A stretch of 64,000 bases of DNA from an uncultured Bacilli bacterium (lineage in GTDB: Bacteria > Bacillota_I > Bacilli_A > RF39 > UBA660): the NCBI GenBank assembly GCA_944363795.1, contig CALVVG010000001.1:373-64372 (forward strand). Direction: 5' to 3'. A program made the translations under genes and the position numbers. Shown piece after piece: positions 42,802 to 43,444 of this stretch. The notes below the pieces were generated by a model. The model searched no databases and was not told the origin of the DNA. It saw only the letters and a program-made list of their open reading frames with translations. Numbering within the stretch: position 1 is the stretch's first letter; each line of letters begins with the position of its first letter.

Positions 42802-43003
42802 AATTTTAAATGAATAATAATTTTATGCAATTATTTATTATTATATAAAAAAAAGGTATTTAATATTTTATAAATTTGCCTTAAACACATAAAAAAACAA
42901 GGATTTTACGTGCAAAATAAAAAGCAAGAATTTTTTTAAAGATAATCCGCTTGCTCGAAAAACGAACATTTGTTTATATTTGTTATAAAATATAAATATT
43001 TAA

Positions 43004-43019
43004 TGTTTCACGTGAAACA
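43004..43019. other. parS site 1 (TGTTTCACGTGAAACA)
   Basis: A perfect 16-bp palindromic parS consensus, lying within a 20-bp palindrome. Confidence 0.85.
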
Positions 43020-43094
43020 TTAAATGATATGATCATTTTTTAATAAATTTGACGTAAATTAAGTTTTTACAAAAATCAAATTTATAAGTAACTA

Positions 43095-43110
43095 TGTTTC
43101 ACGTGAAACA
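43095..43110. other. parS site 2
   Basis: An identical 16-mer, lying within a 26-bp palindrome. Confidence 0.85.
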
Positions 43111-43137
43111 TAGTTAAGTTTAAAAAAATTATCAAGC

Positions 43138-43230
43138 TTATTATTATTATTATTATTATTATTATTATTATTATTATTGTTGTTGTTGTTTATTATCGGC
43201 ATTACTGTTATTGTTGTTGTTACTATTGTG
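43138..43230. repeat. trinucleotide microsatellite (TTA)13(TTG)4 followed by degenerate TTN/RTT triplets
   Basis: A 93-nt stretch with perfect 3-nt periodicity, lying between parS sites 2 and 3. No ORF of 60 aa or more spans it. Confidence 0.9.
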
Positions 43231-43266
43231 TTTTTGCTTTTTTATATATAATTAACTCTTAATCAA

Positions 43267-43282
43267 TGTTTCACGTGAAACA
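43267..43282. other. parS site 3
   Basis: An identical 16-mer. Confidence 0.85.
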
Positions 43283-43339
43283 TTAAAACTAAAAATATAT
43301 ATTATATTTATATAGTAAAATATAATAACATTAAAACAA

Positions 43340-43355
43340 TGTTTCACGTGAAACA
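43340..43355. other. parS site 4
   Basis: An identical 16-mer, lying within a 34-bp perfect palindrome. Confidence 0.85.
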
Positions 43356-43410
43356 TTGTTTTAATGTTAGTTTGCTTCATTTAAATTGATATATTTCAAT
43401 ATAAAAGTTA

Positions 43411-43426
43411 TGTTTCACGTGAAACA
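43411..43426. other. parS site 5
   Basis: An identical 16-mer, lying within a 32-bp perfect palindrome immediately downstream of the gyrA stop. Confidence 0.85.
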
Positions 43427-43444
43427 TAACTTTTAATTGCATTA

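Follow-up and report, generated by a model that had tools for sequence, protein, structure and literature searches.

What does a compact array of identical parS sites do in a gene-free stretch of chromosome, and which protein reads it? The question arises from a 64-kb stretch of DNA (hereafter the window) of an uncultured Bacilli bacterium of the RF39 lineage (GenBank assembly GCA_944363795.1, contig CALVVG010000001.1, positions 373 to 64,372), in which the sequence TGTTTCACGTGAAACA occurs in five exact copies between gyrA and the small signal recognition particle (SRP) RNA gene (ffs/scr, hereafter ffs). The array spans positions 43004-43426, with spacings of 91, 172, 73 and 71 bp, and fills the gap of ~700 bp that separates the SRP RNA gene from the stop codon of gyrA (43445, minus strand; Table 1). 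Sites were matched to the 16-bp palindromic parS consensus TGTTNCACGTGAAACA, and all five gave 16/16 matches. The five copies, their spacings and an 18-bp core common to all of them (ATGTTTCACGTGAAACAT) had been reported in an earlier annotation made from the sequence alone (the original prediction), and an exact-match scan recovered them unchanged; the flanks of the sites are unrelated, and the units share nothing else.

A chance origin of the array was rejected, as 0.01 copies were expected and five copies did not arise in any of 100 shuffles. No further match to TGTTTCACGTGAAACA was found in the 64 kb when allowing up to 2 mismatches, and a scan of the window at 3 mismatches gave only weak, chance-level parS-like matches elsewhere. 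A recent tandem duplication within the window was also rejected, the units having only the 18-bp core in common. The region downstream of gyrA is gene-free, as had been claimed: all open reading frames (ORFs) in it are of at most 42 aa and of low complexity, for example a poly-Asn ORF running through a (TTA)n microsatellite that is itself filler. A hidden ORF in the spacer was rejected on these grounds, and because the spacer cannot be aligned with that of the closest relative outside the parS cores, the Noc-binding sites (NBS), and ffs with its promoter. The origin of replication, oriC, was placed at ~52.2-52.5 kb by the switch in guanine-cytosine (GC) skew and a cluster of DnaA boxes; since both lie ~9 kb from the array, the latter is origin-proximal, which agrees with the distance to dnaA given originally.

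The original prediction had proposed a comparison of the orthologous regions downstream of gyrA in relatives. This was performed using a DnaN-based scan with one genome per species, which yielded 48 syntenic loci, all from uncultured low-GC gut Bacilli (Candidatus Onthocola, Clostridium sp. CAG:609, Firmicutes bacterium CAG:460, and metagenome-assembled genomes named “Tenericutes” or Bacilli). The NCBI class of these relatives is Bacilli incertae sedis, and they are RF39-like; the ENA contig BRZ_CR NODE_399 matches the window. Spacer counts were made on 33 loci covering the whole stretch from gyrA to tadA (DnaN 73-95% identical, plus one outgroup at 49%). Canonical parS sites, 3-16 in number (median 7) and 51-310 bp apart, were found in the gyrA-tadA spacer of 31 of the 33 loci, in the fixed order gyrA, parS array, 0-3 NBS, ffs promoter. 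The remaining 648 kb of these loci contained no parS, except in the 49%-identity outgroup, whose sites lie just past tadA. The presence of an array at the same locus in 31 of 33 related genomes, added to the 16/16 matches, bears out the identification of the sites as canonical parS of the B. subtilis type.

Exact sites number 154 among these parS-like sequences, and the variants differ only at the known degenerate position 5/12 or at the outermost base, a pattern that fits the known tolerance of ParB. No hybrids of, or intermediates between, parS and NBS were found among the sites of the lineage. An alignment of the spacer with that of the closest relative, whose GyrA is 92% identical, holds only at the parS cores and the NBS and over ffs with its promoter. 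Over the aligned columns of ten alignable pairs, cores were 91% identical against 77% for the spacer, a comparison whose p-value is only indicative given that the pairs are not independent and that the cores help to anchor the alignments. Since 31 of 33 relatives share the array and its location, and since its cores are more conserved than the surrounding spacer, it is functional, long-lived and under purifying selection acting on the 16-18-bp cores alone. Its copy number changes in relatives by tandem duplication and decay of units. One relative (L036) has 8 parS units of 64 bp, and another (L039, 17304-19665) has 16 parS sites in a tandem repeat of ~141-154 bp; because 15 of these 16 are the same asymmetric variant TGTTCCACGTGTAACA, the latter array points to a very recent expansion.

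Taken as a whole, the gyrA-ffs spacer is likely to be a chromosomal, centromere-like loading zone for ParB and a loading site for SMC. According to this model, each 16-bp parS would nucleate a dimer of a canonical ParB (Spo0J) encoded elsewhere in the genome, and binding of cytidine triphosphate (CTP) would turn the dimer into a closed clamp, which would then slide away from parS. Five close, untranscribed sites would then act as a high-rate loading pad, giving one dense partition complex ~9 kb from oriC that would mark or position the origin for segregation and recruit SMC, with or without ParA. The adjacent NBS would nucleate a paralogous, Noc-type protein encoded beside rsmG, so that the spacer would carry the loading sites of two related clamps side by side.

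The NBS, as well as the Noc-type ParB homolog, were absent from the original prediction and were found on follow-up. Using ATTTCCCGGGAAAT as the NBS consensus, two exact sites were found in the window and 56 in the loci of the clade. Both window sites are less than 10 kb from oriC, and the 42 kb further out contain none. The first stands beside the array, and at least one NBS is present in the spacer of 28 of the 33 loci (0-3 per locus); the second lies inside mnmE, at a position also occupied in L049, L050, L052, L053, L055, L056 and many dnaN loci. Among the 147 array-bearing contigs listed by the pattern scans described below, NBS co-occur with the array only in L194 and L186, both of which have the layout gyrA-parS-NBS-tadA. 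The two motifs are clearly set apart, and no intermediate forms occur; this would be expected if each had its own reader.

The only ParB-family gene of the window encodes a protein of 381 aa that is best matched by the nucleoid_noc model TIGR04285 (276.9 bits, under its cutoff of 315), and whose closest solved structures are Geobacillus and Bacillus Noc. Four positions (numbered as in Caulobacter ParB) are known from experiment to set ParB/Noc specificity: ParB orthologs are of the type R-x-x-G, parS binders have an invariant R173, Q173 and R201 together with one permissive lysine (179 and/or 184) give NBS specificity, and proteins binding both sites mostly have T or S at 201 (PMC7383237). The window protein is Q-K-S-R at these positions (Q173, K179, S184, R201); the supplement of Jalal et al. 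gives no table of individual variants for QKSR, QKTR or QKNR. Since it combines Q173 with R201, whereas parS binders have R173, it is predicted to read NBS and not parS.

Its homologs form a very large family of uncultured low-GC Bacilli, with long variable linkers and tails, total lengths of 227-821 aa, and N, S or T instead of K at position 184. The 120 closest are all Q-K-(S/T)-R; the 150 nearest cluster representatives are all Noc-like, with Q173 in 144. R or K occupies position 201 in all 270 homologs (P0001-P0270), and Q173 is present in all but six. These six (P0203, P0210, P0225, P0227, P0236 and P0249) have V, E, T or L at 173, some of them with K at 201, which hints that the DNA specificity of the family has diversified further than parS and NBS. 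B. subtilis Noc binds the membrane through an N-terminal amphipathic helix (PMC8429893). In nearly all homologs the leader before the ParB_N domain has only 4-10 residues, against ~29 in B. subtilis Noc, and the window protein and its family lack the membrane-targeting helix. A mis-called start does not account for this, because rsmG ends at 58752, 27 nt before the ORF, so that no upstream extension is possible.

A canonical partner for the array was searched for in several ways. In the 64-kb window, neither ParA nor a Spo0J-type ParB was found by tblastn (with Spo0J, Soj and Noc queries, which also gave none in the loci of the relatives) or by profile search, as the original prediction had stated, the Noc-type paralog being the one relative encoded there. 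The profile search of the clade, performed with jackhmmer and hmmsearch over 2,550 ORFs from 1.04 Mb, was likewise negative. When homologs of the window protein were collected, the best 120 were all Noc-type; a search of a representative library with its N-terminal and helix-turn-helix part gave 150 best matches that were all Noc-like, none being of the ParB R…G type. Among the metagenome matches listed, none of the low-GC contigs was a clade member carrying ParB, and searches of the literature and of supplements for RF39 partition genes found none.

Three observations weigh against the model of a ParB loading zone. The R173/G201 ParB and ParA that it supposes were not found in the window or in ~1.04 Mb of the origin regions of relatives. 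The usual rsmG-noc-soj-spo0J cluster stops after noc in all clade members in which it was read, and soj and spo0J are missing from that place. The palindromic extensions of the sites, described below, are enriched lineage-wide, and the model does not require them. As for the cluster, the surroundings of six Noc homologs, the distant QKNR group among them, read rsmG-noc followed by a convergently oriented penicillin-binding protein (PBP) gene wherever the contig passed noc, two contigs being too short; on the longer contigs this convergent gene is followed by argS-prfA-prmC-spoIIR. In L055 (13284-14544), and also in L056, the gap between the PBP gene and argS has three tandem units of ~390 bp with GC-richer, structured-looking segments. 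They may represent a small RNA in several copies or else a mobile element, and the window lacks them. It is the conservation of the sites that points to a canonical ParB in this lineage. RF39-type lineages are predicted to be peptidoglycan-containing spore-formers (PMC10868615), which fits the sporulation genes of the window: Spo0A (15473-16276), YabG (27504-28280), SpoVT (32811-33335) and BofA (39443-39631), with SpoIIR just beyond it (seen in the relative L049, 17512-18024). As the lineage is predicted to be spore-forming and has Spo0A, SpoVT, BofA and YabG in the window, a Spo0J-type protein is plausible in it.

These negative results are also what would be expected if no separate canonical ParB existed and the Noc-like protein, or some non-ParB protein, read both parS and NBS, one protein thus serving two motifs. 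Between -52 and +22 kb of oriC there is a single ParB-family gene, no relative sampled has soj or spo0J in the usual place, parS and NBS are adjacent, with NBS in 28 of 33 loci, and the protein is an atypical Noc, lacking a membrane helix, having S, T or N instead of K at 184, and scoring below the TIGR04285 cutoff. The specificity residues speak otherwise: R or K at 201 in all 270 homologs and Q173 in all but six are at odds with the results of a deep mutational scan, namely the invariant R173 of parS binders and the T or S at 201 that most dual binders have (PMC7383237), and the sharp separation of the two motifs, without intermediates, is likewise unfavourable. A single reader of both motifs is therefore considered unlikely. 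An equally improbable form of the idea is that the clade has lost canonical ParA and ParB altogether, so that its sole ParB-fold protein would be a helix-less, Noc-like CTPase. The array would then have as its reader either this CTPase, with a relaxed specificity or a second one, or some unrelated protein; were this true, the gyrA-ffs spacer with its parS and NBS would be a new kind of composite origin-organising locus. In other Firmicutes, such as S. aureus, spo0J is not located beside noc, which also counts against a single reader. If a normal ParB does exist, as the loading-zone model has it, the adjacent parS and NBS could represent a deliberate two-clamp hub, in which the helix-less Noc has an origin role instead of nucleoid occlusion; this remains a tentative suggestion, and a somewhat doubtful one.

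The shape of the sites deserves separate consideration. Each of the five is extended into a longer perfect palindrome, as had been claimed, although the stated range of 20-34 bp is too narrow, one of them (parS-4) measuring 44 bp (Table 1). Over 185 sites of the lineage, extensions of at least 4 bp per arm were found in 30% (6% in a null obtained by re-pairing flanks at random), and extensions of at least 6 bp per arm in 13.5% (null 0.65%). The intergenic NBS of the window is also palindrome-extended, and the NBS inside mnmE is not. Because the palindrome flanks differ at every site, the extensions lie outside the motif recognised by the protein. Most likely they would have arisen by mutation, as by-products of a hairpin-templated correction of quasipalindromes for which the perfect 16-bp core provided the seed, in AT-rich non-coding DNA free of constraint, and the two gyrA-proximal extended sites may in addition aid the termination of gyrA transcription.

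Hairpin formation might even be the main function of the palindromes, as gyrA terminators, insulators or cruciforms, their likeness to parS then being incidental. All five are extended perfect palindromes, with RNA hairpins of -10.7 to -23.5 kcal/mol; the two nearest to gyrA are the most stable on the gyrA-sense strand (parS-5, -18.5 kcal/mol; parS-4, -23.5 kcal/mol), and that of parS-4 is followed on this strand by a U-rich tail. In relatives, the tail of the first site is more T-rich (p = 0.0025). A terminator needs neither 3-16 copies nor the parS sequence, however, and it is the exact 16-bp parS sequence that is conserved while stem length and flanks vary at every site. The terminator scan was passed by parS-4 only, a T-tract is absent at three of the five window sites, and a systematically longer terminator palindrome at the first site was rejected (p = 0.85). 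Hairpins as the main function are accordingly judged very unlikely, and at most a secondary terminator role of the gyrA-proximal sites is possible.

The original prediction had also held that a dense intergenic array is exceptional for a chromosome and resembles a plasmid-style centromere; neither claim survived. A pattern scan for two perfect parS sites 40-70 bp apart was performed on metagenome contigs and on viral or plasmid-like contigs, and found dense perfect pairs in at least 120 metagenome contigs (GC 25-72%). Among the 120 metagenome matches listed, 65 have at least 3 sites per kb, 16 at least 5 and 3 at least 8. In 83 of these 120, rsmG, parA or parB is present in the same locus, and dense perfect arrays therefore commonly accompany chromosomal ParABS systems. 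Two unrelated organisms likewise have dense arrays near core replication genes: L153 (GC 56%) carries 4 parS at 2275-2369, ~500 bp downstream of gyrA (5240-2868), and L102 (GC 35%) has 15 parS within 1 kb (1202-2027), adjoining dnaA. Up to 20-23 parS occur in some species, and a review poses the question of why parS sites cluster (PMC7333895).

Close perfect pairs were also found in 27 viral or plasmid-like contigs of IMG/VR (L058-L084), 22 of them with at least 3 sites per kb, and no Soj- or Spo0J-like gene was detected in the fetched flanks of these contigs. These contigs might suggest that the array descends from a plasmid or phage centromere, as a remnant or an insertion, or that it is a dispersed repeat (repetitive extragenic palindrome, or REP; miniature inverted-repeat transposable element, or MITE). 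The rest of the evidence effectively refutes this: the array region has no similarity to 72,556 plasmids and 50,697 phages but for one AT-rich chance match, mobile-element genes are lacking, more than 30 species share identical chromosomal synteny, the motif occurs nowhere else in the window, and the array has no fixed repeat unit. With neither a fixed unit, nor adjacent parAB, nor plasmid or phage relatives, it is a real, conserved chromosomal parS array, and not a plasmid-like oddity. What is distinctive about it is its detachment from parAB genes, its pairing with NBS, and a helix-less Noc family.

The surrounding genes are those of a reduced genome of 25% GC, and on the dnaA side their order parallels the origin region of B. 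subtilis: dnaA, dnaN, a ComK-like gene, recF, gyrB, gyrA, the array, ffs, tadA, dnaX, ybaB, recR, bofA, holB and ricT, then further out pth, mfd, spoVT and metS, later spo0A, and later still ribosomal operons. On the other side of oriC, rnpA, yidC, jag, mnmE, mnmG and rsmG precede the ParB-family gene. Three details of this neighbourhood were recorded. The ComK-family gene (PF06338; 49015-49446, minus strand) separates dnaN from recF; in B. subtilis this place is occupied by the small yaaA/rlbA gene. A T-box leader (32598-32779, minus strand; 114 bits) is followed by a dUTPase-family ORF (32570..32085) and then by the methionyl-tRNA synthetase gene (32082..30556), so that a non-synthetase gene is interposed between the T-box and metS. 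Because the maximal tadA ORF (42220-42678, minus strand) shares 30 nt with the 3' end of ffs, the true tadA start is probably a downstream ATG.

Table 1. Coordinates of the parS array, the Noc-binding sites and the neighbouring features in the window.
Feature	Positions	Strand	Remarks
parS-1	42998..43025	none	28-bp perfect palindrome; core 43004-43019
parS-2	43089..43116	none	28-bp perfect palindrome; core 43095-43110
(TTA)~14 then (GTT)n microsatellite	43138..43196		perfect (TTA) run between parS-2 and parS-3; not conserved in relatives
parS-3	43265..43284	none	20-bp perfect palindrome; core 43267-43282
parS-4	43326..43369	none	44-bp perfect palindrome; core 43340-43355; terminator-like flag on both strands
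parS-5	43402..43435	none	34-bp perfect palindrome; core 43411-43426; begins 10 bp past gyrA stop codon
NBS-1	42788-42801		perfect ATTTCCCGGGAAAT in a 32-bp palindrome (42779..42810); 200 bp from array; directly upstream of SRP RNA promoter
NBS-2	55847..55860		perfect NBS inside mnmE; position conserved across lineage
SRP RNA promoter, sigma-70 type	42742..42770	-	strong; TTGACA-17-TGnTATTAT, 11/12 matches; distal border of array region; kept in relatives
Small SRP RNA gene (ffs/scr)	42649..42746	-	downstream neighbour
gyrA	43445..45886	-	upstream neighbour; transcribed toward array
DnaA-box cluster (oriC)	52285..52424	none	upstream of dnaA, at GC-skew minimum
ParB-family gene, Noc-type	58779..59924	+	381 aa; annotated start 58788; only ParB-family gene in window

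These results pin down the centromere and the origin architecture of a widespread uncultured gut lineage, and indicate that dense perfect arrays are far commoner than the literature on model organisms suggests. A natural, compact, gene-free array with constraint limited to cores of 16-18 bp is useful for asking why parS sites cluster and how their copy number evolves (PMC7333895). The pairing with NBS, together with an anchorless Noc, is a naturally occurring and testable example of how two paralogous clamps that depend on CTP may load next to each other.

Among known systems, the closest likeness is with Spo0J/ParB-parS of B. subtilis (10 sites, 8 of them in the ori domain), which has the identical 16-bp site in an origin-proximal position, a Noc paralog with its NBS, and the gene neighbourhood dnaA-dnaN-recF-gyrB-gyrA ... 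dnaX-recR. The B. subtilis parS sites are single, scattered over hundreds of kb and often intragenic, whereas here all detectable ones lie in a gene-free spacer of 430 bp; spo0J-soj adjoin noc in B. subtilis, and here no spo0J or soj is found near noc or the origin. The Noc system agrees in the exact match of the NBS to the 14/16-bp consensus, in Q173, K179 and R201, and in the position of the gene directly after rsmG. It differs in that the B. subtilis NBS are scattered chromosome-wide, while those seen in the origin region read here cluster at the origin next to parS, and in that the window protein has a long variable linker and tail and lacks the N-terminal amphipathic membrane-targeting helix.

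Density of the order seen in the relatives (up to 16 sites in 2.4 kb) is known from M. xanthus, where 22-24 sites form a cluster in ~3 kb, ~4 kb upstream of parA (PMC3899335). This too is a dense, near-origin chromosomal array, of near-identical repeats ~100-150 bp apart (22 in ~3 kb); it lies beside the parAB operon, whereas the present one is detached and paired with NBS, and phylum and GC content differ. In C. glutamicum, 10 parS occur in 35 kb, 9 of them intergenic (PMC7083940), which is again a clustering of B. subtilis-type sites in intergenic DNA, forming a single ParB/SMC loading hub there, at a density ~80-fold lower and over many genes. Plasmid arrays such as sopC of F (12 tandem 43-bp repeats) resemble the present one in having several ParB-type sites in tandem in non-coding DNA. 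Theirs, however, is a fixed unit abutting parAB (sopAB) on a mobile replicon, whereas the present sites are irregularly spaced (71-172 bp) and unrelated in their flanks, par genes are not adjacent, and the chromosomal synteny is conserved.

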